A DNA stretch of 64,000 nt from a virus. A program made the position numbers and the translations under genes. The stretch's first letter is position 1. Each line of letters begins with the position of its first letter. This document shows positions 27,964-49,947 of this stretch, piece after piece. Under the pieces are notes generated by a model. The model was given only the letters and a program-made list of their open reading frames with translations. It searched no databases and was not told where the DNA came from. The stretch lies in IMG/VR virus record IMGVR_UViG_3300045988_167906; one strand, 5' to 3'.

Positions 27964-28399
27964 TGAATTGTATGCTGTCTTTAATGGTGATGAATGCAAC
28001 CGTAGTCATAAGTTCGAAGTTTGGCAGACATTGTATCAGATTGTACATTGTGCAGAACTGGACAATGCAGATATTATCATTGATACTAACTGTTTGACTC
28101 TTGGACAGAGAGAAGAAATCAGAAGCCGTTTCCCCCATTTCGATAACTATCAGCTTATGGTTATTATTGCTAGCGTAGAAAATTCAAAGGAATGGAACTC
28201 CCAGAGACATAGAGTAGTGCCGCAGCAGGAGCTTGAACGGCAGGCACGTATTGTAGACTGGCCTAATTTGACTGACCATTATAATGGTTGGAATAATATT
28301 AGATATTATTATAATGATGGCTCTCTGTTTACTAAATATCGTGAAATTTATGATGGTGAAGACCATGACTTGCGGCAGGAGAAGGAGGATAATAAGTAA
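27854..28399 (+). CDS. P-loop kinase (polynucleotide-kinase-like NTPase domain)
   Basis: Walker A GLSANGKTT, Walker-B-like IIIDTN. RBS GAGAGGAG. Confidence 0.5.
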   Translation: MKLMATLYMMCGLSANGKTTFAKSFAKMNHIRYVNPDELYAVFNGDECNRSHKFEVWQTLYQIVHCAELDNADIIIDTNCLTLGQREEIRSRFPHFDNYQLMVIIASVENSKEWNSQRHRVVPQQELERQARIVDWPNLTDHYNGWNNIRYYYNDGSLFTKYREIYDGEDHDLRQEKEDNK

Positions 28400-29058: not shown

Positions 29059-29283
29059 ATGTTTGGTTTTGATGATAGCTATTTTTTGTTCATGAATGAA
29101 GCAGAGGGTACTGGAATGGTAAACACTCGTACTGGATGTATTAATACTCTGGTACGTAAGATGCAAGAAAGTCCTCGATGGTATGTTGAGGAAAATTTTA
29201 ATATTATGTGTGAAGAGTGCGGGATTGAGGATATTACACCTGCCGAAGAAGATATGGTATGGGAGATGTATAGCCGAGGATGA
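29059..29283 (+). CDS. hypothetical protein
   Basis: RBS AAGGAG. Confidence 0.45.
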   Translation: MFGFDDSYFLFMNEAEGTGMVNTRTGCINTLVRKMQESPRWYVEENFNIMCEECGIEDITPAEEDMVWEMYSRG

Positions 29284-30860
29284 AAGTTTATTTAAAAGAC
29301 ATATGGCCGATGGACAAGAAAAGAACTTATAGTCCAGTTTATGATGCTAAGGTTTATGATAAAGAAGCTTGGGAAAAACTATTAGAAGATTTTAACGAGA
29401 ATGTTAAAGTAGGAACTTATAGCAAATTACCTTATGCTGATTGGAGAGTTCTTCATCTGATGGATGGAGATTACAAGGTAGTCTGGTTTGAAATTGATAA
29501 TGTATATCTGGCTCCTACGGTAGCTCATATTCAGGAATTTAAATATTTAAAAGATTCAGATAATTTTAGAATGGTAGGTACTGATAAGAAGTATGATACT
29601 TCTGAGGCTTATTCATTTGGTGCATATTTGGCTGATATGCTATTCTATGATTATTTTGATTGTATGGAAACTACTGGAAAGACAGATGATTATAGATTAT
29701 TTGGCTTGAATAATTTAGGAGCATATGGTTCAGAGGATAGTATCGGTTGGCGTGCTATTAATTGGGCACTTAATCCCGCGGTGGAGGGTACAACTGGTCA
29801 AGTGATTTTTAGTGATGTAAAAAAAGATATAAAGAAACTCAATTGCGAGTTTAATAAAACTACTGAAATTATTAATAATTGTTATAATAAAATTAACGAA
29901 AATACTGAATGGCTTAATAAAGTATATGAAGATGTAGATAGAGTAAAAAATACCGCATTTTCTGATACGGCAACTATTAATGTTAGCCCTATTGATCCAG
30001 CTAAACTGGATACTAAAGATGCAACAGCTTCTACTGCTTCTGTTAGTATAGATTGGGGATATCGTCCAACCGCTTCTACAGCTAGTTCTATTATTGGTGG
30101 AGGCGTTGCGGAAAATACTATTAAAATTGGCAATGATGGTTCATATGCAACAACTATTTCAATTGATAGTGGTTTAACTAGCCGTCTTGATACAATGGAA
30201 GAAAGAATTAATAAACTTGAAACAAACAATGATGATGTGAAAGGTAAAGGAAATAATATGAAGATGTTTAATTTTGATTTTGGTCCGATTAAGGATAATG
30301 ATGCTGTCCGTATGTCGCCGTATGGTCTGGCTGTTAAGAATGTTAATGGCACTTATCAGGCATATGATAAGAAGAACGGCGAAATTATGGATGTTGATAT
30401 TTTCAACTTTAAAGCTGATAATATGTTCTTCAAGATGCCTGTTGGTATTGACGCTATTGAAGCTGGCGATGTAATTATTTTCAACAGACGTCCGTGCTTT
30501 GTCTTTGGTTTCTCTGAGCAGGGTGATGTAATTGCAATTGATATTGCAATGGGTGAGAAGAAGACTATTATGCCGACACGTAGTCCTTTCGGTTTTAATT
30601 TCATTACGAAGGTTGTGTCTCTGGCTGATGGCATGCTTGGCGGTACTCCTTCTGCTGAAAATCCCTTCGGTAATATGTGGATGTTTGCAATGATGGATGA
30701 TAAGTCCTCTATGAAAGATATGCTGCCGATGATGATGCTGATGAATGGCAATGCCGGCGGCACAATGGACCCGATGATGCTGTACTTCATGATGAAGGAC
30801 GGCAAGGGTGATGATGAAAGTATGCTTCCTCTTCTTCTTATGATGAATATGAAGAAGTAA
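29280..30860 (+). CDS. large hypothetical protein with Met-rich C-terminus (possible virion protein)
   Basis: 526 aa, no TAG. Confidence 0.5.
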   Translation: MKVYLKDIWPMDKKRTYSPVYDAKVYDKEAWEKLLEDFNENVKVGTYSKLPYADWRVLHLMDGDYKVVWFEIDNVYLAPTVAHIQEFKYLKDSDNFRMVGTDKKYDTSEAYSFGAYLADMLFYDYFDCMETTGKTDDYRLFGLNNLGAYGSEDSIGWRAINWALNPAVEGTTGQVIFSDVKKDIKKLNCEFNKTTEIINNCYNKINENTEWLNKVYEDVDRVKNTAFSDTATINVSPIDPAKLDTKDATASTASVSIDWGYRPTASTASSIIGGGVAENTIKIGNDGSYATTISIDSGLTSRLDTMEERINKLETNNDDVKGKGNNMKMFNFDFGPIKDNDAVRMSPYGLAVKNVNGTYQAYDKKNGEIMDVDIFNFKADNMFFKMPVGIDAIEAGDVIIFNRRPCFVFGFSEQGDVIAIDIAMGEKKTIMPTRSPFGFNFITKVVSLADGMLGGTPSAENPFGNMWMFAMMDDKSSMKDMLPMMMLMNGNAGGTMDPMMLYFMMKDGKGDDESMLPLLLMMNMKK

Positions 30861-31006: not shown

Positions 31007-32671
31007 ATGACAGATTTGAGGACTCTTATTCCAGAAGAAGAAAAGAACCTGCTGCACGATTATATTAAAGAGTACCTTCATTCTGATAATTACTGTACAG
31101 TAGATGAAATTAATCATCTTCTGCGGTTTTGGGCTGTCGAAAAGCCCGACCTGTATAAGCTGTTGGGCAACAACCTGATGGTTAAAGACCATATTGCTTA
31201 TCAGGCATCTGAAGAGGATTTGATGGATAAGTTCAGTGAAATGTATGAAGAAATTTATAATAATCCTGAATTAGCAAACGTTAAAAAATTCATTGACTCT
31301 TACGAGCAGATTACTAATATTTATTATTCTTGGATGGATGCCACTCTTGATAAGGATGAACGTGTTAATTGTTGTAGCATGATTGAGCATTGCCTTGATA
31401 GTGAATCTCTCGTAGCCAATAAAAATGTGTATATGTTTGATTGGGGTCGCAAATCTGTTACTATTCGCCGTGGTCCGCATGCAGATACTTCAAAGCCGCT
31501 TGAACTGAAGAGTGATATGAAGTTGATGCGAATGATGGCTAAAATTGTCGATTGGTTTGAGCTGGACAAAGAAGCATTTGAACAGTTCCGTATTCTTCAT
31601 TCGCGTGTTTTGAATGATCGTATGATTAATGCTAATATTACATTGTCTATTCATCCGCTTGACTATCTTACTATGAGTGACAATGCTTGTGATTGGGAGA
31701 GCTGTATGAACTGGTATCAGGGTGGCGATTATCGTCTTGGTACTGTTGAAATGATGAACTCCCCTGTTATCCTTGAAGCATATGTTGAGTCTGAGCATCC
31801 TTATTGTCCTATTGATCGTGATAATAGAACTTGGAGCAATAAGCGTTGGCGGTGTCTTTATATTGTTAATAAGGATATTATCACTGAAATCAAACAGTAT
31901 CCTTATAATAACATTTATCTGCGTGACTATGTGCTGAATAAGATTAAGCAGTTGGCTGAACAGAATATGGGCTGGCATTATGATGATAAAATGTATGAGG
32001 TTTGGCAGAACCAGAATAATGATACTGATTTTGGTCAGGTTTATATCCGCATGAGGACCGGAGCTATGTATAATGATTATTATGATAATCATTATGCTTA
32101 TATCAATCCAGAAGTCAAAGAAGTAGAAGTTTGTTATTCTGGTGTAGCTGAATGTATGTGTTGCGGCAAAGGCTACGAAGCTGACCCGAGTGGAAATGTA
32201 GATGCATTTGTAGAATGTGATAAAGTCGTATGTGCAACCTGCGAAGGCAAAGTCCAGTGCGATGATTGCGGTGCTTGGATTGATAGTGAAGATGCTTGGT
32301 TTTGTAGTGAAGATGGTGCAACTTATTGTAGTTGGTGTGCAGAGGGCCGCACCCAGGTTTGTAGCTGCTGCGGAGAAACTAAATGGCTTGATTATGATTT
32401 CAAGAAGCAGGCTCTTCCATATATGTTTGAAGTAAAAACTCCTAATGGTAAGCATCGTCGAGATATTGGAAATCCGATTGATGTCTGTGATGATTGCTAT
32501 GAAGATTATTGTTTCGATGATGTACCAAAGGAACCAGACTTGTGGGGAGATTTTCAATATATTGATGTTGACAAGGTAGATAAGAAGGTATGGGAGCCAT
32601 TTCTGTCCCTTGAAAGAATTGCTGATGCCAAGGTGCGGCTAAAGGCAACTTACCCTGATGATTATGTTTAG
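31007..32671 (+). CDS. paralog family C member 1 (HPLDYLTMSDN...WESCMNW...YR.GT.EMMNSP core plus C-terminal multi-CxxC zinc-ribbon array)
   Basis: Paralogous to 38101-39744 and 42339-43664. Ends at a TAG, so the true end may be 32725. Confidence 0.55.
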   Translation: MTDLRTLIPEEEKNLLHDYIKEYLHSDNYCTVDEINHLLRFWAVEKPDLYKLLGNNLMVKDHIAYQASEEDLMDKFSEMYEEIYNNPELANVKKFIDSYEQITNIYYSWMDATLDKDERVNCCSMIEHCLDSESLVANKNVYMFDWGRKSVTIRRGPHADTSKPLELKSDMKLMRMMAKIVDWFELDKEAFEQFRILHSRVLNDRMINANITLSIHPLDYLTMSDNACDWESCMNWYQGGDYRLGTVEMMNSPVILEAYVESEHPYCPIDRDNRTWSNKRWRCLYIVNKDIITEIKQYPYNNIYLRDYVLNKIKQLAEQNMGWHYDDKMYEVWQNQNNDTDFGQVYIRMRTGAMYNDYYDNHYAYINPEVKEVEVCYSGVAECMCCGKGYEADPSGNVDAFVECDKVVCATCEGKVQCDDCGAWIDSEDAWFCSEDGATYCSWCAEGRTQVCSCCGETKWLDYDFKKQALPYMFEVKTPNGKHRRDIGNPIDVCDDCYEDYCFDDVPKEPDLWGDFQYIDVDKVDKKVWEPFLSLERIADAKVRLKATYPDDYV

Positions 32672-32750
32672 TTTAAATTCTTGCCAAAATTGAATACTCG
32701 AAAATTTATAAAAAATTTGATATAATATATATAGAAAGGATGGGAGAGAT

Positions 32751-33194
32751 ATGGAACGCATTTATAAATTGACTTATGGTTCTGACTATGAAGAACAGAA
32801 ACTTGGTTATCTTACAGAAGATAAGCTGAATGATTATCTTGAAGAGTTGTTTCATTCAACTCTGATGAAAGATAGTATTCATAGTCATTTTGAAACTCTC
32901 CGAGCAGAAAAGATTAGATATGCAACCAAGCGTTATAATGCTATTCAGGATATGAATAAATATCTTCCCATCCTTCAGGAAGGCAAAGCAAGTCCTGAAT
33001 ATAGGAATGCCAAGAAAGAATATAAGAAATATGAACGCATTATCATTGATTGTAAATGGCAAATGAAGAAAGCGGATATGCTGCTTGAGGAATGCAAGAA
33101 ATGGACGGCAGTTGATTGGCTTCATTGGGCTGATTATAATTGGGAGCCGATTGAACTTAATGTAATCAGACAAGTTAATGAGGAGGATTGCTAA
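32751..33194 (+). CDS. hypothetical protein, tandem paralog of the next gene
   Basis: Shared YK(L/V)...YLTEDKL..YL...NWEPI pattern. Confidence 0.45.
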   Translation: MERIYKLTYGSDYEEQKLGYLTEDKLNDYLEELFHSTLMKDSIHSHFETLRAEKIRYATKRYNAIQDMNKYLPILQEGKASPEYRNAKKEYKKYERIIIDCKWQMKKADMLLEECKKWTAVDWLHWADYNWEPIELNVIRQVNEEDC

Positions 33195-33652
33195 TGACAA
33201 TTTATAAGGTAAGCCGCGGCAATGCTTGGGATGAATATGACATTGCTTATCTTACAGAAGATAAGTTGGAAGAATATCTCAATGCTGTTTACAATAGCTC
33301 TTGGATGGAACAGCATAAGCATAATCATCTTGATGGTATCAATGAGACAGAGAAAGATTACAAAGAAAGTTTTGATAGATATATTCAAAGCTGTAATTTC
33401 TATCTTCATGCTCCAAAACATGGACAGTTAAGTAAAGAAGCTTCTAAAAATAATTTCAATCAGTGTGAACGAAAAATTATAGAAACACGCAATAGACTTC
33501 AGCAAATCCAAGAGATTAAAGAAGAAGTAGTCAATTGGAGCAAGGAAGATTGGCTGCATCACGCACATTATAATTGGGAACCTATCCGAATTAATGATAT
33601 GGAAAATCTTGAAAGACCTGATGATGACAGAACAAGTGAGGATTGGATGTAA
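33188..33652 (+). CDS. hypothetical protein, tandem paralog of the previous gene
   Basis: As for 32751-33194. Confidence 0.45.
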   Translation: MLMTIYKVSRGNAWDEYDIAYLTEDKLEEYLNAVYNSSWMEQHKHNHLDGINETEKDYKESFDRYIQSCNFYLHAPKHGQLSKEASKNNFNQCERKIIETRNRLQQIQEIKEEVVNWSKEDWLHHAHYNWEPIRINDMENLERPDDDRTSEDWM

Positions 33653-33885
33653 TGGAAAAGAAAAAGATTGTAATTAAAGTTTTGAGTGAGTGCGGTACTC
33701 TGACCGCAAAACAGATTTCTGCATTTGCTAAACGTAAGTATGATTTTGACATTACACCACAGGGTGCCTCGGGTGTAATGCGTGGTCTCATTGGTCAAGG
33801 CTTGGCTGGTAGTTCTAAGGATGAAAATAACCATACAAGATATTGGCTTAATACTTGCTCTTGGAAGGATATGTCAGATGTTTAA
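33643..33885 (+). CDS. hypothetical protein
   Basis: Overlap. Confidence 0.4.
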   Translation: MDVMEKKKIVIKVLSECGTLTAKQISAFAKRKYDFDITPQGASGVMRGLIGQGLAGSSKDENNHTRYWLNTCSWKDMSDV

Positions 33886-34108
33886 AAAATGTATTGTAAC
33901 TATTCTATTAGTTGTAACTGTTGGATTACTTCTTATTTCGTCTTGGAAATATACTTCTAATAAAATTCGTATTTTTCCTAATACCTTTGGTTCTCAGGGT
34001 GTTGAAATTCAGAAACGTGATGGTTATAAAATTAATACAATGCATCCTTATGAAATGATTGAAACAGAAGATGGATATGATTTAATTATTCATTTTATTA
34101 AGGAGTAA
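33878..34108 (+). CDS. membrane-anchored small protein
   Basis: N-terminal TM. Confidence 0.4.
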   Translation: MFKKCIVTILLVVTVGLLLISSWKYTSNKIRIFPNTFGSQGVEIQKRDGYKINTMHPYEMIETEDGYDLIIHFIKE

Positions 34109-34109
34109 T

Positions 34110-34280
34110 ATGGCTGAATGTAAATATTTTAGTTATGAAGATACGACTCCTTGGCACGGTGATGTGTTTGATCATCCTGATTATAAGTATTATTGTTTAA
34201 AGAATGAAAAGAAAAAAGAAATTTTTTCTTGGACTTGTTCAAAATGCCCTTATTATAAGGAGAAGAAAAATGATTCATAA
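34110..34280 (+). CDS. small Cys-rich protein (56 aa)
   Basis: RBS AGGAG. Confidence 0.35.
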   Translation: MAECKYFSYEDTTPWHGDVFDHPDYKYYCLKNEKKKEIFSWTCSKCPYYKEKKNDS

Positions 34281-34542
34281 AATGATTGCATGCTCAGAAG
34301 AATGTCTCCGCTTGGCCTGTTGTAATGTTTGTAAATATGTTATTCTAGATTATTTTTTTGAGAAAGATAAAGATGGAAATATGCAGATTGTAAATGGTGG
34401 ACCATATGGTTGTTCTCTCCATAAAGATAGTGACCATCAAATGATTGCTGAAAGTTATGGCTATTGTCCAGATTTCCATTGCAGAAATGCTACTGAGGAA
34501 AATGAATACAAATGGGTTGTAAAGGAGACTATTGATGACTGA
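34270..34542 (+). CDS. Cys-rich hypothetical protein
   Basis: In frame with listed ORF 34204. Confidence 0.4.
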   Translation: MIHKMIACSEECLRLACCNVCKYVILDYFFEKDKDGNMQIVNGGPYGCSLHKDSDHQMIAESYGYCPDFHCRNATEENEYKWVVKETIDD

Positions 34543-34783
34543 ATATAAATGTAAAGTATATCTGGTTCCGCCGCAGATAGGTTGGCATGGATTTAGTCTA
34601 GTTGCTGCCCTTGATGCTGAATATGCTAATCAAATTATTCGGAAAGCCGCTGGAGAGAGTAGATATTATTGGGGCTATTCACACGTGCGAGAGTATGATG
34701 CTATTGATAATGTTTATTCTGATACTATTGGATTTGTATATGAAGGGATTTTTGAAGACGATGAATATAGCAGAATTGATTAA
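34532..34783 (+). CDS. hypothetical protein
   Basis: Overlap. Confidence 0.4.
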   Translation: MMTEYKCKVYLVPPQIGWHGFSLVAALDAEYANQIIRKAAGESRYYWGYSHVREYDAIDNVYSDTIGFVYEGIFEDDEYSRID

Positions 34784-35000
34784 ACTGGTTGAAAAAACTG
34801 ATTGGAATAAATATCAGAAAGAAGATATTCTTGATTCGGTTAAAGAGCATCCTGAACTTCTGGATATGACACCTGTTCAGCTTCGTACCAGAGCCAGAGA
34901 TTTGGATTGGGATGCTGATGGATATATGAATAAGGTTAATAGCCTTGAAAATGAAGCGGCTTTGACCAGAGATTTAATTGAAATTATGTATGGAGAGTGA
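34761..35000 (+). CDS. hypothetical protein
   Basis: ATG 34761. Confidence 0.4.
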   Translation: MNIAELIKLVEKTDWNKYQKEDILDSVKEHPELLDMTPVQLRTRARDLDWDADGYMNKVNSLENEAALTRDLIEIMYGE

Positions 35001-35005
35001 TAATT

Positions 35006-35812
35006 ATGAATTACCATTCAGATAAATGGGTTATGGATAAGGTAGAAACTCATTTAGAAGCAGCTAATATTAGAAGCGAAAATTGGGTTAGTTTAATGGC
35101 TTATGGTAGCCAGAATTATGGTCTTGATACTCAAAATTCTGATGTAGATACCCGCCTTATTGTTCTTCCTTCATTTGAAGATATTGTATTGAATAAGAAG
35201 CCGGTATCTTATACCAAGATTCTTTCTAATGATGAACACATTGATTTTAAAGATATTCGTTTGTTCATTGATTGTTTGAAGAAACAGAATATGGCTTATC
35301 TTGAATGTATCTTCACGCCTTATAAAATGGCATCAAGTACGTATTGGAATGAGTGGCAGGCACTGCTTAATGAGCGTGAAGCTATTGCACGCTATAATCC
35401 TTACAAGGCAGTTAAGACAATGAAGGGTATTGCTATGGAAAAATACCATGCAATGGAACATAGATATCCTACTAAGGCCCATCTGATTGATACATATGGT
35501 TATGATAGCAAGCAGCTTATGCATCTGCTTCGTATTGAAAGATACCTTGGACGTTATATTGATGGTGTTAAATATGCAGATTGTCTTCAAGCCCCAATGG
35601 GTGATTATCTTCTTGATGTAAAAAATTATCATTATAATCTTGAAACTGCACGAATTGTAGCCAATACTGCTATTAGTAATATTACAAGAGTAGCTGATGA
35701 TTATTGTTCTAAGACCAAGGATGAAGGTAATGAAGAGCTTGAAGATTTTATGAATAAGATTGTTTATCTTATTATGAAAAAAAGAATTGTAAAGGAAATG
35801 TTAAATGTCTGA
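35006..35812 (+). CDS. nucleotidyltransferase (Pol-beta superfamily minimal NTase fold)
   Basis: YGSQNYGLDTQNSDVDTRL matches the G[GS]-x9-13-D-x-D motif. Confidence 0.5.
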   Translation: MNYHSDKWVMDKVETHLEAANIRSENWVSLMAYGSQNYGLDTQNSDVDTRLIVLPSFEDIVLNKKPVSYTKILSNDEHIDFKDIRLFIDCLKKQNMAYLECIFTPYKMASSTYWNEWQALLNEREAIARYNPYKAVKTMKGIAMEKYHAMEHRYPTKAHLIDTYGYDSKQLMHLLRIERYLGRYIDGVKYADCLQAPMGDYLLDVKNYHYNLETARIVANTAISNITRVADDYCSKTKDEGNEELEDFMNKIVYLIMKKRIVKEMLNV

Positions 35813-35996
35813 AGATAATATGACTATTGAAATTGATAGTCGAGATATTGAAGAAATTGAAAATAATTTTGATGATCTTGGTAAATGGCTGACTGAACAT
35901 TTTACCAGATTTGGTGCTCAAGCTGTTGTGCTTAGTGCAGTTATAGAAAAAGTAGAAGAATTAAAGGAAGAGTTGGCTAAAGAAGAAAATACGTAA
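35805..35996 (+). CDS. hypothetical acidic protein
   Basis: Overlap. Confidence 0.4.
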   Translation: MSEDNMTIEIDSRDIEEIENNFDDLGKWLTEHFTRFGAQAVVLSAVIEKVEELKEELAKEENT

Positions 35997-36009
35997 GGAG
36001 GGAACTTCA

Positions 36010-36789
36010 ATGTTCAAGGACTGGGTTGTCCGAGGCGATTGTCATGGCGATTTTACATGGCTTAACGCAAGAATGTTTAGAATTTTAAATCCAAAAGACT
36101 ACGCAATTATTATCCTTGGTGACGTAGGTTTCAATAGTGGCAATACATTCCGGGATGATATGAAGAAAAAGTATGCAAGCCAGTTTGGATATTCTATCTA
36201 TTGCGTGCGTGGTAACCATGAGGTACGTCCTGAGAATGTTGAAGGTATGGAACGCATTTGGGATAGTAATGTTCAAGCTAACGTATGGTATGAGCCGGCC
36301 TACCCTTTGATTAAATATTTTGATAATTATGGGGTTTATTATCTTAAAACAGAAGATAGAGAATATCGCACGTTGGTCATCTGCGGGGCTTACTCTGTTG
36401 ATAAATATTACCGTCTTAAAAATAATCTGCTCTGGTGGGAAGATGAGCAGTTGACTGATGCAGAGAAGTCAGAAGTAGAGAGACTTATTCGGCAGACTAA
36501 CAAGCATTTTGACCTTGTGCTCTCGCACACTTGCCCTTATTCTCTTAGGCCAGTTGATAAATTTCTTTCAGTAGTAGACCAATCTACTGTAGATACATCT
36601 ATGGAAGAGTGGCTTGAAACTATTAAGAATATGATTACATATGATGTATGGCTTAGTGGGCATTATCATGTTGACCGATTTATCAATAAGCATAATATTC
36701 TCTATTTTAATTGCATTGACTCATTAGAGGATATTTTTCTCTGGCATGATAAAATGGATGATACTGTAAATAACATTGACCGCATCTAA
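36010..36789 (+). CDS. calcineurin-like metallophosphoesterase (lambda-phosphatase family)
   Basis: GDCHGD, GDVGFN and RGNHE motifs. Confidence 0.65.
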   Translation: MFKDWVVRGDCHGDFTWLNARMFRILNPKDYAIIILGDVGFNSGNTFRDDMKKKYASQFGYSIYCVRGNHEVRPENVEGMERIWDSNVQANVWYEPAYPLIKYFDNYGVYYLKTEDREYRTLVICGAYSVDKYYRLKNNLLWWEDEQLTDAEKSEVERLIRQTNKHFDLVLSHTCPYSLRPVDKFLSVVDQSTVDTSMEEWLETIKNMITYDVWLSGHYHVDRFINKHNILYFNCIDSLEDIFLWHDKMDDTVNNIDRI

Positions 36790-36882
36790 ACGGTCAATTC
36801 TTTTTAGCTATTAAATTTGACTTTTCATATAAAATATAGTATTATTTACTAGCTATTTATTTTATATTAAAGGAGAATTAAT

Positions 36883-37470
36883 ATGCGAAAATTCTTAAAT
36901 GTCATTCTTGTAATCGCTATGGTTGCTTTAATGATGATGCCAGTAAATGCTTTTAACGTAATAAGTTATAGTGTTGATGGCGGAAGCAGGTCAGAAATCG
37001 AATACGGTCCTACAGAATATTGTAATTGCGGAATCGACCATACTAATAAACCCTTTGAATGGTGGACTGATATTACATCTACTGATAGTCCTCAATGGGA
37101 TTTAATTCATAATTATTTAACTATTTAGGAGAACGGCACATTAGCTACTGATGATGGCTATACTGCTTGTGCTCTTGGAAGGTACTTCGGTAAGATTGGT
37201 TCAAAATGGATTTTTATTTGTGAAGATGGTTCAGAAATTAAGGTAGTTAAAGCTGATGAAAAGCAAGACCGCCATACAAAAAATTGGGATTTAATTCACG
37301 GTATTATTTGTGATGAATTAATTGAGCTTGTTGTAGATAGTAAGATTAGTCAAACTTGCCCAACTGGCAATTTCAAAGACCTTGAAGGTTTTGAAGGTAA
37401 TATAATTGGGTGGAAAGAAGTTCTTAATAATGAATTACCTGATTTGTTAAAAGGAACAATTTATAAATAA
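36883..37470 (+). CDS. secreted hypothetical protein (signal peptide) extended through an in-frame TAG at 37126
   Basis: N-terminal MRKFLNVILVIAMVALMMMPVNA. The frame stays open through TAG until TAA 37468. The motif WDLIH recurs before and after the TAG. Confidence 0.5.
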
Positions 37471-37496
37471 AATAATATTAAATGAGGTAATATAAA

Positions 37497-37997
37497 ATGA
37501 GCGTAGTTGCCGCAAAGGTATATGATAATAATATTCAAATGTCTGCGGACAGTATTTTAACTAATGGATGGGAAAAAGACCCTAACACTAACTTTACTAA
37601 AATTATTTCTTTAAATGATATGATTGTCGGTAGCGTTGGTAATGCGGATGAATGTAGTCTTATGTGGCTGTATATGGAAAATCATCAACCACTTAATGCT
37701 ACAGAAAGAGAAATTCTTAATTATTTTACTGAATTTGGTAAATGGAAAGGCGAGATTTCTAATACTCGTGAGATTAGGAATAGTTATTTAATGGCTTTTG
37801 GAGGTCATCTTTTTCAGATTTGTGGATACTTAGTTAGAGAAATTAAAGATTATTATGCTATCGGTGCTGGCGCTCCTTATGCTTTGACAGCACTTCATCT
37901 TGGACATGATTCAGAAGAAGCTGTTAAAGTTTCTTGTGCTATGTGTTGCTTCGTTTGTGAACCTATTGTGACATATAATCAGAAAAAAGATAATTAA
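37497..37997 (+). CDS. HslV / proteasome-beta-like Ntn-hydrolase peptidase
   Basis: ...AIGAGAPYALTALHLG matches HslV IAIGSGGPYAQAAARAL, and the N-terminal small-residue nucleophile region matches too. Confidence 0.45.
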   Translation: MSVVAAKVYDNNIQMSADSILTNGWEKDPNTNFTKIISLNDMIVGSVGNADECSLMWLYMENHQPLNATEREILNYFTEFGKWKGEISNTREIRNSYLMAFGGHLFQICGYLVREIKDYYAIGAGAPYALTALHLGHDSEEAVKVSCAMCCFVCEPIVTYNQKKDN

Positions 37998-38100
37998 ACA
38001 TAGATAAAAAGGGATAAAGATTTGATTCTTTATCCCTTTTTTATTTTTATAAAAAAATATTATAAAATATTTATAGAAAAAATAAAGGGAGTAAATAATC

Positions 38101-39744
38101 ATGACACCTTATGAAGCATTGACTGCACAAGATAAGGAATATATTACTGAATATATTGAAACATGGGGTGGCGTTAATTCCCCAATTAAACTCAAAGCAT
38201 CTCTTGATTATATCCTTCGAGAATGGAATAAGAGTAAACAAACTCTATTTAATATTTTTGGCGAAAAGTTAATGTTGGAGAAGGAAATCCAGGTTGAAGA
38301 TGGAGATAACAAAAAAGTAAGAGAAGTTAATGAGTATCTCTATAGCACTAATCCTGGTATCAATTTTATTACAAATCTTTGTAGATTATTTGAATCTGAT
38401 ACTACTTATTTTGAAAATACTTATGCAACAAGGCATGCGATATATAATTTAACTCAAGCTTATCAACTTTTTACTAATAGAGTTGTTAAAGGATTTACTT
38501 ATCACAATAAAGATGGTAAAGTAGTTAAAGTTCCAGAAGGAGCTAAGGTAATGAAAGTTCTTCAGAAAATGGCTAAAGAATTTGATTTGCCTGATTTTGA
38601 AATTTTTCGCAATCATGTTTCACGTATTACTGAAGTACGTAAATCTAAAATTAAATTTACTTTATCTATTCATCCCTTGGATTATATGACTATGAGCGAT
38701 AATATAAATGGTTGGGAAAGTTGTATGAACTGGACTCAAGGGCCAGGCTCTTACCGTGCAGGCACTATTGAAATGATGAATAGTCCATTAGTTGTTGTAG
38801 CATATATTACTACTAAACCTTATTATCCAGCAAATACTTCAATTGAGTGGACTTCCAAAAGTTGGAGAGAATTGATTATTGTTCATCCAAAAGCTATTTG
38901 TTCTGTAAAATCTTATCCTTATTACAATATTGCATTTGATAAAGCTCTTGTTAATTGGCTTGCTAATTTGGTTGAAGAAAAAACTGAATGGCGTTATAAC
39001 AGAAAAAAGCCACAAGAAAGTTTAGATAGTTGTTCCTATATCGAAGCTTGGCAAGATAAAGAAGATAAGGATAATCGTTTCCTGTTGGATTTTGAAACAA
39101 ATGAAATGTATAATGATTTTGGTAATACAGAAAATTATGGAATTTTTTCAATTAATCCACCAGACAATAAATATCGTACATTCGCAATTAATTATTCTGG
39201 TTTAATGACTTGTATGTGTTGTGGCGAAAATGGTTATTGGTCTGATGACACTGAAATGGTGGTTTGTGAAGATTGTGATCCACCCACTTATTGTTATTGC
39301 TGTGGTGAACGAGTTAACGTAAATGATGCAATTGAAGTAGATGGTGAATGGATTTGTGAAGATTGTTATCATGATTTACATAGATGCTTATGTTGCGAGG
39401 ACGTTCATTTTGATGAAGATTTCACTCCCGTATTCATTGGACATATTGACAATCAAACTATTAATATTGATTATGATGAGCATTATATTTGTAATGAATG
39501 TCTTGCCAATAAAGAATATTTAAAGTATCTAGGAGATACTGATATTAGAGCTGAAACAATTCGATTGGATGGCGGTCCTTATTATGGTATGGTGGCTCTC
39601 TTAATTGAAGAAGATGATTTAAATGTAGAGGCTAAAAAGATAATTTCTAATGATCCTTATTCTACTATAATTACTGATTATACTTATGCTATTCGTCGTT
39701 ATCCTGAGCGTTTTTATAGTTACAATAAGTCAATTGCGATTTAA
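38101..39744 (+). CDS. paralog family C member 2
   Basis: SIHPLDYMTMSDN...WESCMNWTQG...YRAGTIEMMNSP plus CMCCGENGY...CEDCD zinc ribbons. Confidence 0.55.
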   Translation: MTPYEALTAQDKEYITEYIETWGGVNSPIKLKASLDYILREWNKSKQTLFNIFGEKLMLEKEIQVEDGDNKKVREVNEYLYSTNPGINFITNLCRLFESDTTYFENTYATRHAIYNLTQAYQLFTNRVVKGFTYHNKDGKVVKVPEGAKVMKVLQKMAKEFDLPDFEIFRNHVSRITEVRKSKIKFTLSIHPLDYMTMSDNINGWESCMNWTQGPGSYRAGTIEMMNSPLVVVAYITTKPYYPANTSIEWTSKSWRELIIVHPKAICSVKSYPYYNIAFDKALVNWLANLVEEKTEWRYNRKKPQESLDSCSYIEAWQDKEDKDNRFLLDFETNEMYNDFGNTENYGIFSINPPDNKYRTFAINYSGLMTCMCCGENGYWSDDTEMVVCEDCDPPTYCYCCGERVNVNDAIEVDGEWICEDCYHDLHRCLCCEDVHFDEDFTPVFIGHIDNQTINIDYDEHYICNECLANKEYLKYLGDTDIRAETIRLDGGPYYGMVALLIEEDDLNVEAKKIISNDPYSTIITDYTYAIRRYPERFYSYNKSIAI

Positions 39745-39815
39745 TTGAAATTTTTAAAATAAAATAATATAATATATACATAAAATAAAGGAAAAATAAA
39801 AGGAGTTATTAAATT

Positions 39816-40211
39816 ATGGAAAAGAAGTTTACAAAGCGTGAGCTGTATGATGCTCTGATTGGCAAGCTGTGTGGTGAAGAGGTCGAAGTTGATGCACAGA
39901 CTCTGGTCGATTTTTGTCAGGCAGAGATTGATCGTATTGATCAGCGTAACGCCAAGGACCGTGAGAAGCGTGAAGCTAAGAAGGCAGAGCCTGATGTTGC
40001 ACGCGAGAAGGTGTTTGCCGCAGTTGATGAGCAGTTCCGTACTGCCGATGTGATTCATGATACTATTGATGATGAAGAGATTACCCTTGGCAAGGTTCGT
40101 CATCGTCTGGCAGGTCTTGTCCGCGATGGTCTGGTGAAGAAGCAGGAGATGAAGGTCCCCGGCGGCGAGGGTGAGAAGACGCGGCACGCCATGTGCTACG
40201 CGAGAGCTTAA
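39816..40211 (+). CDS. paralog family A member 3 (divergent C-terminus)
   Basis: Begins MEKKFTKRELYDAL like the other A members. Confidence 0.5.
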   Translation: MEKKFTKRELYDALIGKLCGEEVEVDAQTLVDFCQAEIDRIDQRNAKDREKREAKKAEPDVAREKVFAAVDEQFRTADVIHDTIDDEEITLGKVRHRLAGLVRDGLVKKQEMKVPGGEGEKTRHAMCYARA

Positions 40212-40377
40212 TAAATGAAGGGTCGGGAAACCGACCCTTTTGTTTTGCCATTTTAAGGTGCTGCTCCGGCCAAGGTCAGGCGTCTATACCGAACATCCAA
40301 ATTGAAAGGCGTTTTAAGAATTTTTTTGACTAAATGCTAATAATATGGTAAAATAATATAAAAAGGAGTAGATAAAA

Positions 40378-41205
40378 ATGAAAGTTTGTTTAAGACATAA
40401 TCAAGAAGAACAGTATCTCCAAAAGGCAGATTAGATTGAAGTTAAATGGGCATATATTGATCAACTTCTTGATTTGGTAGAGAAATATCCTGATAAAGAT
40501 TTTATTATAGATGCTCCAAAAGGCAAACCAATGGATTGGAAAAGTATAGCCGCATGCAAGGCCGGCCTGCATTAGGGTCATACCTTCTATATTCGGCTGC
40601 ATGATCTAAATCCTTTGCTTACATTACGCTGGATGGAGAAATACGATTTTAAATTTTTTTATAGTGAACCGGCAAAAACATATTATGAGCTGTATAATCT
40701 AAAAAAATTAGGTGTATCATATGCTTATATTGATGCTCCCATTTTCTTTGATTTAAATGAAGTAAAAAAAATAGATATTCCATTAAGACTTGTGCCAAAT
40801 CGGGCATATATTCAAGGGCATATTCCACAACTGAGTGGCTTACATGGCACTTGGGTCCGTCCGGAAAAACTTGATATTTATGAACCATATTTTGATGTTT
40901 GTGAATTTGAAAATGATGGACCTACGCAAGAACGAGCCTTTTACCGCATTTATTTTGAAGATAAGTCTTGGCCGAATGACATGAATTCATTAATTTTTGG
41001 TCTTAATACTAATATTGATGATAGATTAGTATATGAAGGTCTTGATGAAATGCGTCTTAATTGTAAACAAGTATGTGAAACACCTAAGCCCTATTGTCAA
41101 ATGTGTGATAAAGTATTATATTTCGAACGGGCCGGACGTCAATGGGCCAAGGAGTACATTGCTGAACATGAGGGAGAAGACCAAGAACAGATAAGCCCTA
41201 ATTGA
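40378..41205 (+). CDS. hypothetical protein (275 aa) containing two in-frame TAGs
   Basis: AAAAGGAG RBS precedes ATG 40378. TAGs at 40432 and 40573 are in frame with listed ORF 40615-41205. Confidence 0.5.
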
Positions 41206-41259
41206 TTATTTAATAAAATTATTATATAATATTTATATAATAATAGAAGGGAATAAGAA

Positions 41260-42258
41260 ATGGGTAAAAAAGTTTTAGTTCCTGATTTTACTGAAAATTG
41301 TAGAGGGCTTTTGGAAGGGCTATTCAAGATTAGTGAAGTAGGTCTTTTAAAAGCTCTTGGTGATTTTGTATCTAATAAATATTCTAATGTAGAAATTACA
41401 GAAGATTATGTATACGCTGAAGGCAATATTCCTGTAATGCTTATCGCACACGTAGATACTGTATTTAGACAGCCAATTCGTCAATTTACTTATAATGAGA
41501 AAAGAGCTGTTTATAAAGGCAAGGAAGGTCTTGGAGCAGACGATAGAGCAGGTGTTTTTGCGATTATTCAAATTTTGCGTAAGAAGTATAGACCTTATGT
41601 CCTTTTTACAACAGATGAAGAAATGGGCGGTTATGGTGCCCATATGTTCATTGAAGCACATCCAGTAGCCCCAGATATTAAATATATGATTGAGCTGGAT
41701 AGAGCTGGTGAAAAAGATTGTGTTTTCTATGAATGTGAAAATTTTACATTTGTAGATTATGTTGAAAGTTTTGGTTTTAGGCAAGCAATTGGATCATTTA
41801 CAGATATTAGTATTATTATGCCTGAATGGGAAATTGCCGGAGTAAATTTATCAGTTGGCTATCATCATGAACATACTCAAAATGAAGATTTACATATTAG
41901 AACATTGTATAATACAATTAATAAAGTATGTAAAATGCTTGATGATATCGAAAATGCAGATAAATATAAGTTTATTCCTAGTAAGGAATATCTTCAGTGG
42001 ATTACATTAACTAATAAATATCATATGCCTTATGATTTTGATGATGATAAACTTCTTAATTGTAGTTTTTGTAATCAGTTGTATTATGAGTGGGAAGATT
42101 TTCCTCTTGATATTGATGGAGTAAAAGTTCATGTATGTCCTGAATGTTTGGCCCTTGATCCTAATATTCATCAATGTGAAAAGTGCTATAATTTATTTTA
42201 TTCAAATAATATGAGAGAAAGAGTATGTGATAAATGTCGAGTCCCTGTTGTAATTTAA
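41260..42258 (+). CDS. M20/M28-family zinc metallopeptidase-like protein with C-terminal zinc-ribbon tail
   Basis: IAHVDTV, GADDRAGV, TTDEEMGG resemble M20 (ArgE/DapE/PepT) metal-binding motifs. C-terminal CxxC x4. Confidence 0.5.
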   Translation: MGKKVLVPDFTENCRGLLEGLFKISEVGLLKALGDFVSNKYSNVEITEDYVYAEGNIPVMLIAHVDTVFRQPIRQFTYNEKRAVYKGKEGLGADDRAGVFAIIQILRKKYRPYVLFTTDEEMGGYGAHMFIEAHPVAPDIKYMIELDRAGEKDCVFYECENFTFVDYVESFGFRQAIGSFTDISIIMPEWEIAGVNLSVGYHHEHTQNEDLHIRTLYNTINKVCKMLDDIENADKYKFIPSKEYLQWITLTNKYHMPYDFDDDKLLNCSFCNQLYYEWEDFPLDIDGVKVHVCPECLALDPNIHQCEKCYNLFYSNNMRERVCDKCRVPVVI

Positions 42259-42338
42259 ATGAAATTAAAGAACAAGTAAAGAAGGTTATTGCCTATTCAT
42301 AGGGGCTGGACATTAACCTTTTAAATATTGATAAATTA

Positions 42339-43664
42339 ATGAATGATTGGGAAGAGAATAAATGCAAATTTTATAGTAGGCTTCCTGGTAATAAATTAAT
42401 TTATCAAAGCCATACACCTATTACAATGTCTATTTCAGAAGATGATAAAAAAGCTGAATTAGATTGTTTTATTGATAATATTCGTTGGCGTTATGGCTTA
42501 TTTGAATTAAGAGATTTTGTTGAAAATAATAGAAAAAATTTTTATAATAATATTTTAAATGAAGATTATTCAATGAATAATGGAACTGTTATTCCAAAAG
42601 GAATGAAAATAATTAAAGCATTTAAATATTTTGTAGAAGATAAGGAAATTCTTACTGAAATACAAGATAAAGCTAGTATGCTTATTCAAAATACAAAAAT
42701 TAGTGGATATTTTTGTATGTCAGTTCATCCATTGGATTATCTTAGTTTGAGTGAAAATACACATAATTGGCGGTCATGCCATGCCCTTGATGGAGAATAC
42801 CGTGCTGGTAATTTATCTTATATGGCAGATAATTGTACAATTATATGCTATATTAAGAGTGAACATGATGCGGTTTTACCTAGATTCCCAGATGATGTAC
42901 CATGGGCAGATAAGAAGTGGCGTATGCTTCTTCATGTATCTGATGATGACACTATGGTTATTTCAGGTCGGCATTATCCTTATGAAAGTAAAGGATTGCA
43001 AGATTTTGCTCTTGAGTTATATGAAACATTTTTCGGGCAAGGATACCGTTTTACTGATTGGTGTCATGAAAAATATAATACATTTACAATAAATGATAAA
43101 ATCTTTTCTAATGATAGCCGTTTATTGCCTACTGGATATGTAATGACTCCAGATATTAAGGTTATTGTTGACCCAAAAAATCCTTTACATTACAATGACC
43201 CTCTTCATTCTACTGTATATGACTATTGGTTCAGTATTGCTTATAGTGAACCTTATTGGCATGAAGAAGGTATTCCGCAAGATAAATTAATTCTTCCAAG
43301 AACTCGTACCACTACTAAAGTTAATATAGGACATGATGTAAAATGCTGTATTTGTGGTAAAAATGATTGTGTTTTAACAGATACGATGCTTTGTATTGAT
43401 TGTGAACTTAAATATGGTACAGAAGAAACAGAAGATTTTACTTTCTGTAGAGAGTGCGGTAGACGTATTTATATTCCTGAAGCAATATCATTAGATGATG
43501 ATGATGGTTATGTATGTCGCAATTGCGGAGATAATTATTAGATATGTGATAATTGTAATATGTATTATGATAAAAAAGATTTAATTTATGATGAAGAAAA
43601 CAATGCTTACTACTGTGAAGCTTGTTATGATGAAATTTTATTTGATAGGGAGAATAATGAATAA
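42339..43664 (+). CDS. paralog family C member 3, extended through TAG 43539
   Basis: VHPLDYLSLSEN...W.SC...YRAG core. Read-through adds CDNCNMYY...CEACYDE, another CxxC pair like its paralogs. Confidence 0.55.
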
Positions 43665-43972
43665 TGGCAAAAGGTAGTATTGCTAAAGATGCTGTTGTAG
43701 AAAAAATTGCAGAAGCATTTGGCGAAGATTTCCTCGGATCTTATGATAAAAAGTATTATGTGCGAGCTAAAGAAAATGGACAATATATTCAGATTGCAAT
43801 TAGTCTGACTTGTCCAAAAACTCCAGTTGAATCTTTTGGTTCTATGGATTTTGGTAATAATGAACTTAATTTTGAAGATGGAGCAACAATTCAGCCTGCG
43901 AAAAAGGCTACAGAAATTAGTCCAGAAGAAGAAGAAAATTTAAAAGCTTTAATTGAAAAGCTTGGTTTGTAA
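43664..43972 (+). CDS. hypothetical protein (102 aa)
   Basis: Followed by terminator gagaaagtca/tgactttctc. Confidence 0.45.
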   Translation: MAKGSIAKDAVVEKIAEAFGEDFLGSYDKKYYVRAKENGQYIQIAISLTCPKTPVESFGSMDFGNNELNFEDGATIQPAKKATEISPEEEENLKALIEKLGL

Positions 43973-44079
43973 GAGAAAGTCAAATTGACTTTCTCTTATT
44001 TTTATGTTATAATTATTTATATAGGGCATATTATATTAATTAAATAATTAAATTTCTTATATAAGAAAGGAATAAAAAT

Positions 44080-44361
44080 ATGAAGAAGATTATAATTCCT
44101 CAAGAAGAAGTAAATTATCTTTAGAAATTAAATTATGAAATTGAAGCTAGAAAAAATTTATGTCAATTTTTAATTAGACAAAATATTAGAAATAAAGCTT
44201 TTGATGATTATCATAATGAGTATATAGAATTATTTGCTGAATATGAATTAGCTAAATTAGAATTAGAAAATAATTATATTAAACCAGTAATTGGAAATCA
44301 AACTTGTAATTGGAATTTAGATTTTTAGACAAACGAGGTAAATATTGATGTTATTTCCTAA
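44080..44361 (+). CDS. small protein (93 aa, two in-frame TAGs) preceding the radical-SAM gene
   Basis: RBS AAAGGAATAAAAATATG. Open to TAA only with TAG as sense. Confidence 0.4.
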
Positions 44362-45688
44362 GATAGTTAATATTCCTGAAGAATTTTCTGATTTTATAAG
44401 TCGTTTATATTCTAATGATTGCTTAAATTCTTAGGCTGTATTTACATTAACTTTTTAGGTTACAGATGATTGTTGTCTAAATTGTGTTTATTGTTATCAA
44501 GGACATAAAGGAAAACATAAATTATCCTTTAATACAGCTAAATAGATGATTGATTAGATACTAACAAGAGACAGTAAAGTTATTAATTATATTGACTCTT
44601 ATAAAATACCAGGAGTAGTAATAGAATTTATAGGTGGAGAGCCATTTTTAGAAATTGAATTAATTGATTAGATTACTGATTATTTTATTAATAAAATGAT
44701 TGAATTGCGGCATCCTTGGGCCACTAAATATAAAATTTCAATTAGTTCTAATGGTATTTTATATTTTGAACCAAAAGTACAAGAGTATATTAAAAAAAAT
44801 AATGAAAATTTAAGTTTATCAATTTCTATTGATGGAAATAAAAAATTACATGATGCTTGTAGAGTTTTCCCTGATGGTAGTGGTAGTTATGATAAAGCAT
44901 TGTCCGCCGCATTACATTATAGCCATAATTATAACAAATGGATCGGGAGTAAAATGACTATCTCTCCATTTAATATAGATTATTTATATGACGCTGTTTT
45001 AGAAATGATAAACAATGGTTATAGTCAAATCAATCTAAATTGTGTGTATGAAAAAGGTTGGGAACTTAACCATGCCACTACATTATATTATTAGTTAAAA
45101 AAAATTGCTGATTATTTATTAAATAATGATTTGTGGGATAAAGTTTATTTATCTATTTTTTATATTAATGATGGAAGTAAAAATTTATCTAATGATAATT
45201 GGTGCGGCGGGAATGGTCGTATGTTAGCCTTAAATTGGAAAGGTAAATATTATCCCTGTTTACGTTATATGGAAGATAGCATAAGTAATCAGCCAGAATA
45301 TTATATTGGAGATATTTATTAGGGAATAGGCCAAGATAATTTAACCATCAATAGATTAAAAGATTTATCTGAAATAACAGTTATTAGTCAATCTCCTCAA
45401 AAATGTTTAGATTGTGAAATTTCTGGAGGATGCTCTTGGTGTACAGCTTATAATTATCAAGAAACAGGTAATGTTAATAAAAGAGTTACTTATATTTGTG
45501 ATATGCATTATGCTATAGTTCTAGCTTCTTTATATTATTTAAATTCTATTTTAAAAAAAATAAACTCGAATAAACGATTTAAATTTAATGGAGATATGGA
45601 AAAAGCATTAAAAATTATCTCTTAGGATGAATATAATATAATAAAGGAGGCAATGACAAATGAAAATAGGCACGACAATAACTTCTGA
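44348..45688 (+). CDS. radical SAM / SPASM-domain peptide-modifying enzyme (anSME/sactisynthase-like) containing eight in-frame TAG codons
   Basis: DDCCLNCVYCYQ (CxxxCxxC), FIGGEPFL (GGE SAM motif), C-terminal CGGNGRMLALNWKGKYYPC...CLDCEISGGCSWC (SPASM). Listed ORFs 44696-45094 and 45131-45322 are two fragments of this single frame. Confidence 0.8.
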
Positions 45689-46310
45689 TAGATTCAATGA
45701 ATTAAAGAAAAAAATAAAGGCTGAATGTTTACGTCGTAAATATATAGGTAGTGTAAGTTCATATGGAGGGACTTCTTATGATTATACTACTTAGCCTAAT
45801 AATGGAAAAGTTATTTCAAAAGAACATATAACAAAACTGGTAGAACCTATGGCGGCAATAAATATTGAAAATCAGAATGAAAATATAAATGTTATTAAAG
45901 ATGATGATTTAAGTACATTAGAGGCAAAAATTACAGCTTATCAAGCTATGGGATTAACTGATTCGAATACTGGATGTTCAGCTTATTGCACTGGATTATG
46001 TTCTACTAGTTGTAGTGAAAGTTGTGGAGTACAATGTCAGGGAACTTGTTTAGGCAGTTGTAAGAATACTTGCCAAGGAGGCTGCCAAAACACTTGCAGA
46101 GGCGGATGTCGAAGCAGTTGTAGTGGCAGTTGTGATGGATGCAGTGGTTCTTGCTCAGGTGGATGCCAGACTGGGTGTAGCGGATGCAGCGGTAGCTGTA
46201 CAAGACATTGTGCTAACGATTGTACTGGATTGTGTGGAGGAAGTTGTTCTGGATTATGCACAAGTTGTACTGGCACATGTAGTGGAACTGGTAGGAATGA
46301 ACCATTATAA
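45660..46310 (+). CDS. RiPP-like precursor: ~105-aa leader plus ~110-aa core of 35 cysteines in (C-x3)/(C-x2) repeats; one in-frame TAG
   Basis: AGGAGG RBS then ATG 45660, in frame (through TAG 45792) with listed ORF 45849-46310. Core is CSAYCTGLCSTSCSESCGVQCQGTCLGSCKNTC..., ends TAA. Confidence 0.65.
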
Positions 46311-46428
46311 TTTAAAAACATTTATTGAAAATATATATAATTGTAAAATATATTATATGTATCTTATACAAAATAATATTTTATTTTGTATAAGTGATTA
46401 TAAAAATATAAACTTTCAAAAATATGAT

Positions 46429-46998
46429 ATGGATATTTAGATTTTATCTATTTATGAATATTTATTTCAAAAGTATATTTTACATAAAGATATATTAAAA
46501 CAATATAAAGGTATAGAATTATATAAAATTATGGAAATTCAAGATAAAATTTTTATTAATAGATATAAATTATTATTGTAGATTATTAATAATAATTATA
46601 ATTTTGATAATTAGTTAATATACACTGATTTTAATAATTTTAATTTTGAACAAAATATTAGTTATATAAATTATTGTTTAAAATTACTATTTAATAATTT
46701 TAAAAAAATAGATAAACAATTTTGGAAAATTTTAGATTAGATTTATTTTTTAATTAATGGTAAAACTAATTTATTTTTATTGTTGGGAAATTTTTATTTG
46801 AATAAAAGTAATTTATAGCAATTTACTGAAGAAATAAAAAAAATTCCTGGAATTAAAGAATAGCTCTCTTTTAGTTATACAGCTTTAAATTTAGCTATTG
46901 AAATTGATAAAGTTGCAGAAAATAAAAATTATCTTAATGAATTAATTGAAATTATTGATAATCATTCACAAGAAAAAATTTATAAATTTGATATTTAA
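46429..46998 (+). CDS. hypothetical protein (189 aa) with six in-frame TAGs in extremely AT-rich DNA
   Basis: A 570-nt frame free of TAA/TGA despite ~85 percent AT. Ends TAA. Confidence 0.45.
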
Positions 46999-47267
46999 TA
47001 AAAATTAATATATAATATATATACAAAATAAAGAAAATAAAGACTTTAACAGCAAAGAAATGGACAGTAAATCCGTCGCGAATGCTACGCAGGTTCGAAT
47101 CCTGCCCTCCCCACCACTATATGGCGGAGGTAGGGAAGCGGTTAAACCCAGCGGAACCAAACCAAATAAGTCTTGTTTGAATAAAATAATTATTTGATTT
47201 TTAATAAAAAATATTATATAATATTTATATGAAAAGAGAAAGGCTTTTACAGCAACTTAAACTTTTT

Positions 47268-47848: not shown

Positions 47849-47903
47849 TAAATTTGATTTTTAATAAAAATATTATTATATTATATAGAGAGTGAGGGAA
47901 AGA

Positions 47904-49467: not shown

Positions 49468-49529
49468 AAAATTGAAAAATTAAAAAAAATATTATAAAAT
49501 ATATATACAAAATAAATGAGAAATAAATT

Positions 49530-49606: not shown

Positions 49607-49616
49607 CTGTCCCACC

Positions 49617-49900: not shown

Positions 49901-49947
49901 AATGAATAATTTTTAATTTCTAATATATTATGAAAGGAGAGATTGTT

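Follow-up and report, generated by a model that had tools for sequence, protein, structure and literature searches.

What do three large, mutually related genes near the middle of a 64,000-nucleotide stretch of viral DNA encode, and with which of their neighbors do the products work? The stretch, IMG/VR virus record IMGVR_UViG_3300045988_167906, is analyzed here at its full length and is referred to as the window. A first reading of its letters (the original prediction) had suggested that the three proteins share an H-P-L-D-Y-type core and C-terminal CxxC pairs, match no known family, and may be novel enzymes associated with a downstream cassette of a radical S-adenosylmethionine (SAM) gene and a Cys-rich peptide. 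We show that the three genes, par1, par2, and par3, are intact, expressed-looking members of one ancient, very large family restricted to phages, and that they fall into two subtypes: type A, comprising par1 and par2, a lineage-specific duplication, and type B, represented by par3. With TAG read as described below, they are delimited as follows.

par1: 31007..32725, + strand, type-A paralog, 572 amino acids with TAG read as Gln
par2: 38101..39744, + strand, type-A paralog, 547 amino acids, no in-frame TAG; the protein modelled by AlphaFold2
par3: 42234..43664, + strand, type-B paralog, 475 amino acids; in-frame TAG (Gln) at 42300-42302 and 43539-43541

Three paralogs and a recoded stop codon

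All three + strand open reading frames (ORFs) were confirmed, at 31007-32671, 38101-39744, and 42339-43541 when bounded by the standard code, and their products can be aligned along the whole length. In BLASTP comparisons with E values set at a database size of 1e8, par1 and par2 are 32% identical over 450 amino acids (E 1e-46) and par3 is 24-29% identical to either of them (E ~1e-13), which bears out the proposed paralogy and its shared core. The motif common to all three reads S-x-H-P-L-D-Y…S-D/E-N…W-x-S-C…Y-R-x-G: par1 carries SIHPLDYLTMSDN…WESCMNW…GDYRLGTVEMMNSP, par2 is almost the same, and par3, the most divergent of the three, carries SVHPLDYLSLSEN…WRSCHAL…GEYRAGNLSYMADN. In par1, an N-terminal helical region precedes an alpha/beta core with SIHPLDY…WESC…YRLG, after which the tail is acidic and holds six CxxC pairs; each paralog has six such pairs, rather than the three or four counted originally.

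An ORF survey showed that many long ORFs of the window are broken only by TAG. The radical-SAM gene downstream of the paralogs contains eight in-frame TAGs, and at three conserved TAG sites Gln is found in 72/76, 73/81, and 66/80 of its homologs. For par3, the start first proposed, 42339, is an internal Met; the true start is ATG 42234, and codon 23 of the longer frame is the second in-frame TAG that this start brings in (42300-42302), at a position where Gln (Q23) is invariant in 83 type-B homologs. The CxxC…CxxC stretch that follows the other par3 TAG (43539-43541) is conserved in every type-B homolog examined; it adds CDNC and CEAC, which would make up the whole third zinc site, and the matching stretch folds at a predicted local distance difference test (pLDDT) score of 88-97 in the AlphaFold model of P0121, a 95% identical ortholog. 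In par1, the reading frame continues beyond the standard-code stop (TAG 32669-32671) for 18 codons to 32725, and the 18-residue extension is also present in orthologs P0001 (91%) and P0027 (76%). Taken together, the Gln counts in the radical-SAM homologs, Q23 of par3, the CxxC pairs beyond its later TAG, and the par1 extension argue that this phage reads TAG as Gln (code 15). The original prediction had treated read-through as a property of one gene that gains one extra CxxC pair; the read-through itself stands, but two pairs are gained, and the phenomenon is better described as genome-wide TAG-to-Gln recoding.

Such recoding is already known in gut phages, as reported by Borges et al. (bioRxiv 10.1101/2021.08.26.457843) and Peters et al. 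(PMC9523058). The window resembles these code-15 phages in having in-frame TAGs in conserved genes, with Gln at the aligned positions of homologs, and differs from them in that no suppressor tRNA with a CUA anticodon is found among its 14 tRNAs. Residue-level evidence for TAG-to-Gln recoding is thereby gained for this lineage. In-frame TAGs also occur in p282 (40378-41205) and p199 (36871-37470), both described below, in the SAM synthetase (23446-25584), and in a fibre-like ORF (62164-63321). The p282 ortholog of a relative from the same phage clade (L029:3133-3972) has five in-frame TGA codons, which suggests that TAG and TGA recoding both occur within the clade.

Predicted fold, putative zinc tail, and relatives

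We scanned the three paralogs against Pfam together with 20 further members (ten diverse proteins, including three from Enterococcus phage EF5, and the ten longest, as a domain-fusion check) and against the NCBIfam and PADLOC models together with four further members. The Pfam and NCBIfam scans gave no core match for any of these proteins, the PADLOC defence-system models gave no match at E up to 1, and what the scans yielded was limited to sub-threshold zinc-finger matches. A core-only profile found 0 matches among PDB sequences at E up to 10, in line with the original statement that no family matches, and a BFVD search returned uncharacterised phage proteins only. Among the PHROGs, par3 matched phrog_18912 (E 1.2e-19) and phrog_29713 (E 1.3e-4), both listed as function unknown; par1 and par2 fell below the PHROG threshold and are tied to the same two groups through the family alignment. 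No virion or structural fold, the outcome that the original prediction had set against its enzyme proposal, and no structural PHROG was returned for the paralogs. In searches of the literature on zinc-ribbon and LIM proteins in phages, we found no description of the family.

With the core profile, a search of 1.84 billion cluster representatives assigned to the family 3,535 clusters at 50% identity (E <=1e-3), and 2,078 at E 1e-30. A name or core Pfam domain is absent from all homologs listed; one of them, P0034, carries an ABC-transporter domain and is probably a chimeric gene call. An outward search seeded from the Enterococcus phage proteins gave 11 unnamed matches.

The AlphaFold2 model of par2 has a pLDDT of 88.9 and a predicted template modelling score (pTM) of 0.80 (102 sequences), and the AlphaFold model of the type-B ortholog P0121 has a pLDDT of 91.8 and a pTM of 0.86 (83 sequences). 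Both subtype models follow one plan: the N-terminal region is helical, the core is alpha/beta, and the tail consists of short hairpins. The modelled core begins with beta1, which ends in S-x-H-P-x-D and leads into a long ordered loop; two helices after the loop carry S-D/E-N, W-x-S-C, and Y-R-x-G, and the rest consists of three antiparallel strands, all of them long, then a long helix and more strands. The beta1-to-alpha loop brings together a near-invariant polar set (par2 numbering: S189, H191, P192, D194, S199, N201, W205, S207, C208, Y218, and R219), which continues after the loop with K253, R256, Y272, P273, and D339. In 90 diverse members, with ~25% identity among them, S174, S189, P192, D194, W205, C208, G216, G221, K253, R256, Y272, P273, and D339 are 100% conserved; conservation is at least 93% for H191, S199, N201, S207, Y218, R219, Y235, W250, and W255. 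It is the core, rather than the tail, that is best conserved across the family.

The topology of the modelled core is weakly GNAT-like, and we compared it with the GNAT acyl- and aminoacyl-transferases (RimJ, PatZ, MccE, Fem, ATE1). In GNAT proteins, the acetyl-CoA pyrophosphate motif A, Q/R-x-x-G-x-G/A, lies at the beta4-alpha3 junction; in the family, by contrast, this junction reads Y272-P273-Y274-x-N with an invariant Y-P, and motif A is missing. No Acetyltransf_* Pfam model matched 10 further members at E up to 10 or the three paralogs at E up to 1.

The tail carries a mean net charge of -13 per 100 amino acids (353 members), and the number of CxxC pairs has its mode at six (225/353), predicted to be enough for three Zn(Cys)4 sites. 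When the family profile was compared with PDB sequences, the tail matched the LIM protein CRP2 (E 2.7e-7). Its tandem CxxC…CxxC sites resemble those of LIM, binuclear treble-clef, and double zinc-ribbon fingers (CRP1/CRP2, PINCH), and LIM domains were the only recurring PDB matches in Foldseek searches, none of them significant (best E 0.12-0.17). Canonical LIM spacing (PF00412) is C-x2-C-x16-23-H-x2-C-x2-C-x2-C-x16-21-C-x2-(C/H/D), with a 2-residue inter-finger spacer. The family departs from it in several respects: 5 residues separate the second CxxC from the third in par1 and par2, and 14 do so in par3, the ligands in the paralog tails are all Cys with no His, there are three sites rather than two, and the tail is joined to a large unrelated core. 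No member scanned reached the Pfam LIM threshold (the best, P0279, scored 16.7 bits vs a cut-off of 22.9), and the Pfam scan gave no LIM match for the three window paralogs. Based on these searches and on the two models, the family and its predicted fold appear to lie outside everything characterised; the family is invisible to all current annotation libraries, and two confident structure predictions appear to match nothing solved.

The peptidase module and the downstream cassette

As originally described, the paralogs stand on either side of a peptidase gene (41260-42258), with the radical-SAM gene and the Cys-rich ORF downstream of them. We compared the window proteins by tblastn with 28 loci from metagenome-assembled genomes (MAGs) and 78 IMG/VR loci, and counted genes in the 65 IMG/VR family loci having at least 6 kb downstream. 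One conserved order was found: p526 – type A – p131 – p282 – M20/M28 peptidase – type B – p102. The members other than the paralogs are located in the window as follows.

p526: 29280..30860, + strand, conserved C-terminal domain and Met-rich tail; directly upstream of type A in many genomes
p131: 39816..40211, + strand, module member whose C-terminal half is weakly winged helix-turn-helix (wHTH)-like
p282: 40378..41205, + strand, module member of 275 amino acids with two in-frame TAGs
peptidase: 41260..42258, + strand, M20/M28-type, clan MH (Pfam M28, M42, M20); directly upstream of type B
p102: 43664..43972, + strand, small conserved protein with an acidic C-terminus, after type B

The peptidase and p282 are each present in 64/65 loci, p102 in 61/65, and type B in 59/65; p131 orthologs occupy the same position in at least 39/65, and the synteny of p526 is kept in at least 37/65. 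The peptidase retains PepT-like metal/catalytic motifs (HxD, GADD, DEE, and H) and belongs to PHROG 34186, as does the EF5 gene lying between two family members, and its gene overlaps that of type B by 25 nucleotides in the window and 49 in L008, and that of a family member by 13 in EF5. The terminal cluster of p282, C-x3-C-x4-C-x2-C, is invariant (C225, C229, C234, and C237 in A4). Neither p282 nor p102 gave a Pfam or PDB match, p526 gave no PHROG or PDB match, and profiles of p282, p102, p131, and p526 against PDB and PHROGs yielded nothing beyond the weak hint for p131, whose profile matched wHTH proteins in the PDB at E 0.13. The 526-residue product of p526 was also considered as a fourth paralog and ruled out (hhalign probability 0.2% against the family).

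In the window lineage, type A is doubled, par1 adjoining p526 and par2 adjoining p131, with RlaP, metallophosphatase, and small genes inserted between the two copies. Relative to the locus L002, p526 and the paralogs are 70-80% identical and the interleaved p131, p282, and peptidase 93-96%, a contrast that would point to mosaic recombination or to faster evolution of the paralogs. The genes inserted between par1 and par2 belong in part to an RNA-repair-like set of RNA ligase, AAA_33 kinase, RlaP nucleotidyltransferase, and metallophosphoesterase (16813-18222, 27854-28399, 34997-35812, and 36010-36789), of which the last two stand between type-A paralogs in this lineage only. Close by, at 36871-37470, p199 is a 195-residue protein with one in-frame TAG and an N-terminal signal-peptide-like hydrophobic segment, MRKFLNVILVIAMVALMMMPVNAF, which looks like a secreted or membrane protein.

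Where the family occurs points to large phages of gut bacteria. All 28 loci in the species-genome collection lie on MAG contigs, most of them in Bacillota bins (Lachnospiraceae and other Clostridia), and many of these contigs are 150-176 kb, phage-sized. IMG/VR holds at least 154 family loci, mostly on contigs of 90-200 kb. Among 50,697 annotated phages searched by tblastn, the only isolates with homologs are seven Enterococcus phages, in which they are listed as hypothetical proteins; one faecal contig was also found. The phrog_18912/phrog_29713 proteins of Enterococcus phages EF1, EF5, and VRE9 are true homologs with the same peptidase neighbor. In EF5, family members of 623, 399, and 335 amino acids are arranged around a peptidase of the same PHROG: the 623-residue member lies 1.2 kb upstream of the 399-residue one, which overlaps the peptidase gene and is followed, beyond it, by the 335-residue member. 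The Enterococcus proteins have in common with the window paralogs the motif S-x-x-P-x-D…W-x-[ST]-C…Y-x-x-G…K-x-W-R…Y-P…Y-N-D, and differ from them in having fewer or no zinc sites, the 399-residue protein ending in an acidic tail only and the 335-residue protein having one ribbon. These comparisons show that the block is conserved across 150-200 kb animal-gut phages, many of them TAG- or TGA-recoded, and that it persists in reduced form in Enterococcus phages.

The original prediction had further linked the paralogs, tentatively, to the cassette downstream, described as one for ribosomally synthesized and post-translationally modified peptides (RiPPs). The cassette comprises the following genes.

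Radical-SAM/SPASM gene: 44348-45688, cassette member, downstream of the paralogs
Cys-rich ORF: 45849-46310, 153 amino acids, possibly 216, with ~25 CxxxC-type repeats

The adjacency of paralogs and cassette in the window speaks for such a role, as do L041, L051, and L106, three more divergent lineages in which the cassette likewise follows downstream of the module. When co-occurrence was scored within neighborhoods of ~10 kb, however, the radical-SAM gene was found in only 5/65 family loci, namely close relatives of the window and those three lineages, and among the best 80 radical-SAM loci the family was nearby in only 5, vs 67 with a Cys-rich peptide; many radical-SAM loci, moreover, lie on unrelated phage contigs of 30-60 kb, which may be fragments. 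The DNA of L006, 94% identical to the window, matches up to 43972 and resumes at 47000, with ~620 bp in the cassette's place, so that this genome keeps all paralogs and lacks the 3-kb, low-GC (25-27%) insertion. The separation holds among annotated phages as well: the jumbo phages of Erwinia and Salmonella and the Campylobacter phages that have radical-SAM homologs lack the family, and the Enterococcus phages that carry the family have no radical-SAM homolog. Nor did Pfam and NCBIfam reveal a RiPP recognition element or known tailoring domain in the paralogs or the members scanned. The profiling against radical-SAM and precursor genes that had been proposed as a check identifies the peptidase module, and not the cassette, as the conserved partner. 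We conclude that the cassette is a mobile unit in its own right, which at times inserts downstream of the module; a role for the paralogs in a Cys-rich peptide pathway is largely refuted already, is in our judgment very improbable indeed, and would have been a tempting but wrong annotation.

Several further features of the window were recorded. The cassette tract (43973-47000, ~3 kb, 25-27% GC) also holds an AT-rich ORF containing 7 TAGs. A second variable island, at 47887-49470, carries a C5 cytosine DNA methyltransferase (47952-48863) next to a 208-residue ORF, both of them missing from the close relatives L004 and L005. Beside this island lies a tRNA array at 49541-55442, in which 14 tRNA genes are scattered among small ORFs and an HNH endonuclease (53558-54190) with spacing that varies between close relatives. 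The SAM synthetase (23446-25584) has ~709 amino acids and one in-frame TAG, with an ortholog of also 709 amino acids in L001-L003; a ~340-residue insertion between its central and C-terminal domains is possibly an intein or homing-endonuclease insertion. Near the baseplate and fibre genes, a 406-residue protein with an Mtd_N (major tropism determinant N-terminal) domain (57783-59003) could be the target of a diversity-generating retroelement.

Candidate functions

Our preferred interpretation, a tentative one to which we would give somewhat less than an even chance, is that the paralogs are zinc-finger-tethered enzymes working with the peptidase. They would be enzymes or enzyme-derived ligand binders whose substrate, a protein or something peptide-like, is acted on in the conserved Asp/Cys/Lys/Arg/Tyr pocket, while docking onto a protein partner would fall to the acidic zinc-finger tail. 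Type B may act in complex with the peptidase, as suggested by the overlap of their genes, and type A in the same pathway. That the polar pocket is invariant at ~25% overall identity speaks for catalysis or for the binding of a specific ligand. The conservation pattern (S, D, C, K, R, Y, and D invariant in 90 members) fits an active or ligand-binding site, in keeping with this part of the original novel-enzyme proposal; the proposed association with the Cys-peptide system is not supported. A tail that is acidic and has only Cys ligands speaks against the binding of nucleic acid and in favor of docking to protein. Given the weak GNAT-like topology of the core and the neighboring M20/M28 hydrolase, whose clan includes deacylases, a cycle of acyl- or aminoacyl-transfer and trimming would be the single most likely chemistry, though this is a guess, and any particular chemistry is far less probable than the enzyme interpretation as such.

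Several points weigh against this interpretation. The Enterococcus paralogs replace H191 (by D or R) and R219 (by G, T, or N), and these two residues are therefore not universally catalytic. A few genomes (L026 and L028) lack type B, or both type B and the peptidase, and type A therefore does not strictly require the partnership. The proposed enzyme role derives from conservation, and gene overlap is the one basis on which a type B–peptidase complex is suggested. Finally, an acidic all-Cys tail would also suit a purely regulatory or inhibitory binding protein.

This last point leads to the possibility, which we consider real but rather doubtful, that the proteins are noncatalytic agents of host takeover or regulation, whose pocket binds a ligand or host protein and whose acidic tail either imitates nucleic acid or obstructs a basic host factor, for instance RNA polymerase, a nucleoid protein, or a defence protein. 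The strong acidity of the tail and its likeness to LIM, a protein-interaction module, are consistent with such a role, as are the faster divergence of the paralogs and p526 relative to p131, p282, and the peptidase, and the presence among the neighbors of a possible wHTH protein and, in L008, a sigma-70 factor. On the other hand, thirteen invariant positions, among them S, D, C, K, R, and D, at such low overall identity are more typical of enzymes, and it is the core, rather than the tail, that is best conserved family-wide. We regard it as improbable that the paralogs instead associate with the virion, are ejected from it, or lie inside it, perhaps after processing by the neighboring peptidase. 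The baseplate and fibre genes lie ~13 kb downstream on the same strand, and the internal in-frame TAGs of par3 and p282, together with the par1 ORF that runs past its TAG, bear on this reading through the proposal, made in bioRxiv 10.1101/2021.08.26.457843, that stop-codon recoding marks late genes. Against it stand the failure of the searches to return any structural fold or structural PHROG and the setting of the module amid genes of nucleic-acid metabolism (RNA ligase, PhoH, kinase, and SAM synthetase). M20/M28 enzymes, moreover, are not known to serve as prohead proteases.

Returning to zinc-finger-tethered enzymes that work with the peptidase, a more far-reaching version, which we hold to be possible at best and short of probable, is that types A and B are the founders of a new enzyme superfamily, with an alpha/beta fold that is either unseen or unrecognisably diverged, an active site of Cys, Asp, Lys, and Arg, and a docking tail with three zinc sites, and that they would act with the M20/M28 hydrolase and three or four other uncharacterised proteins in a protein- or peptide-modifying machine. 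If this is true, nearly every member of a major clade of large gut phages with recoded stop codons would carry such a machine. The family marks a conserved block in a big group of 150-200 kb phages of gut Bacillota for which there is hardly any experimental biology. Homologs and their peptidase partner also occur in culturable Enterococcus phages (EF1, EF5, VRE9, and H1), which makes the function testable by phage genetics, an opportunity that is rare for metagenomic dark matter.

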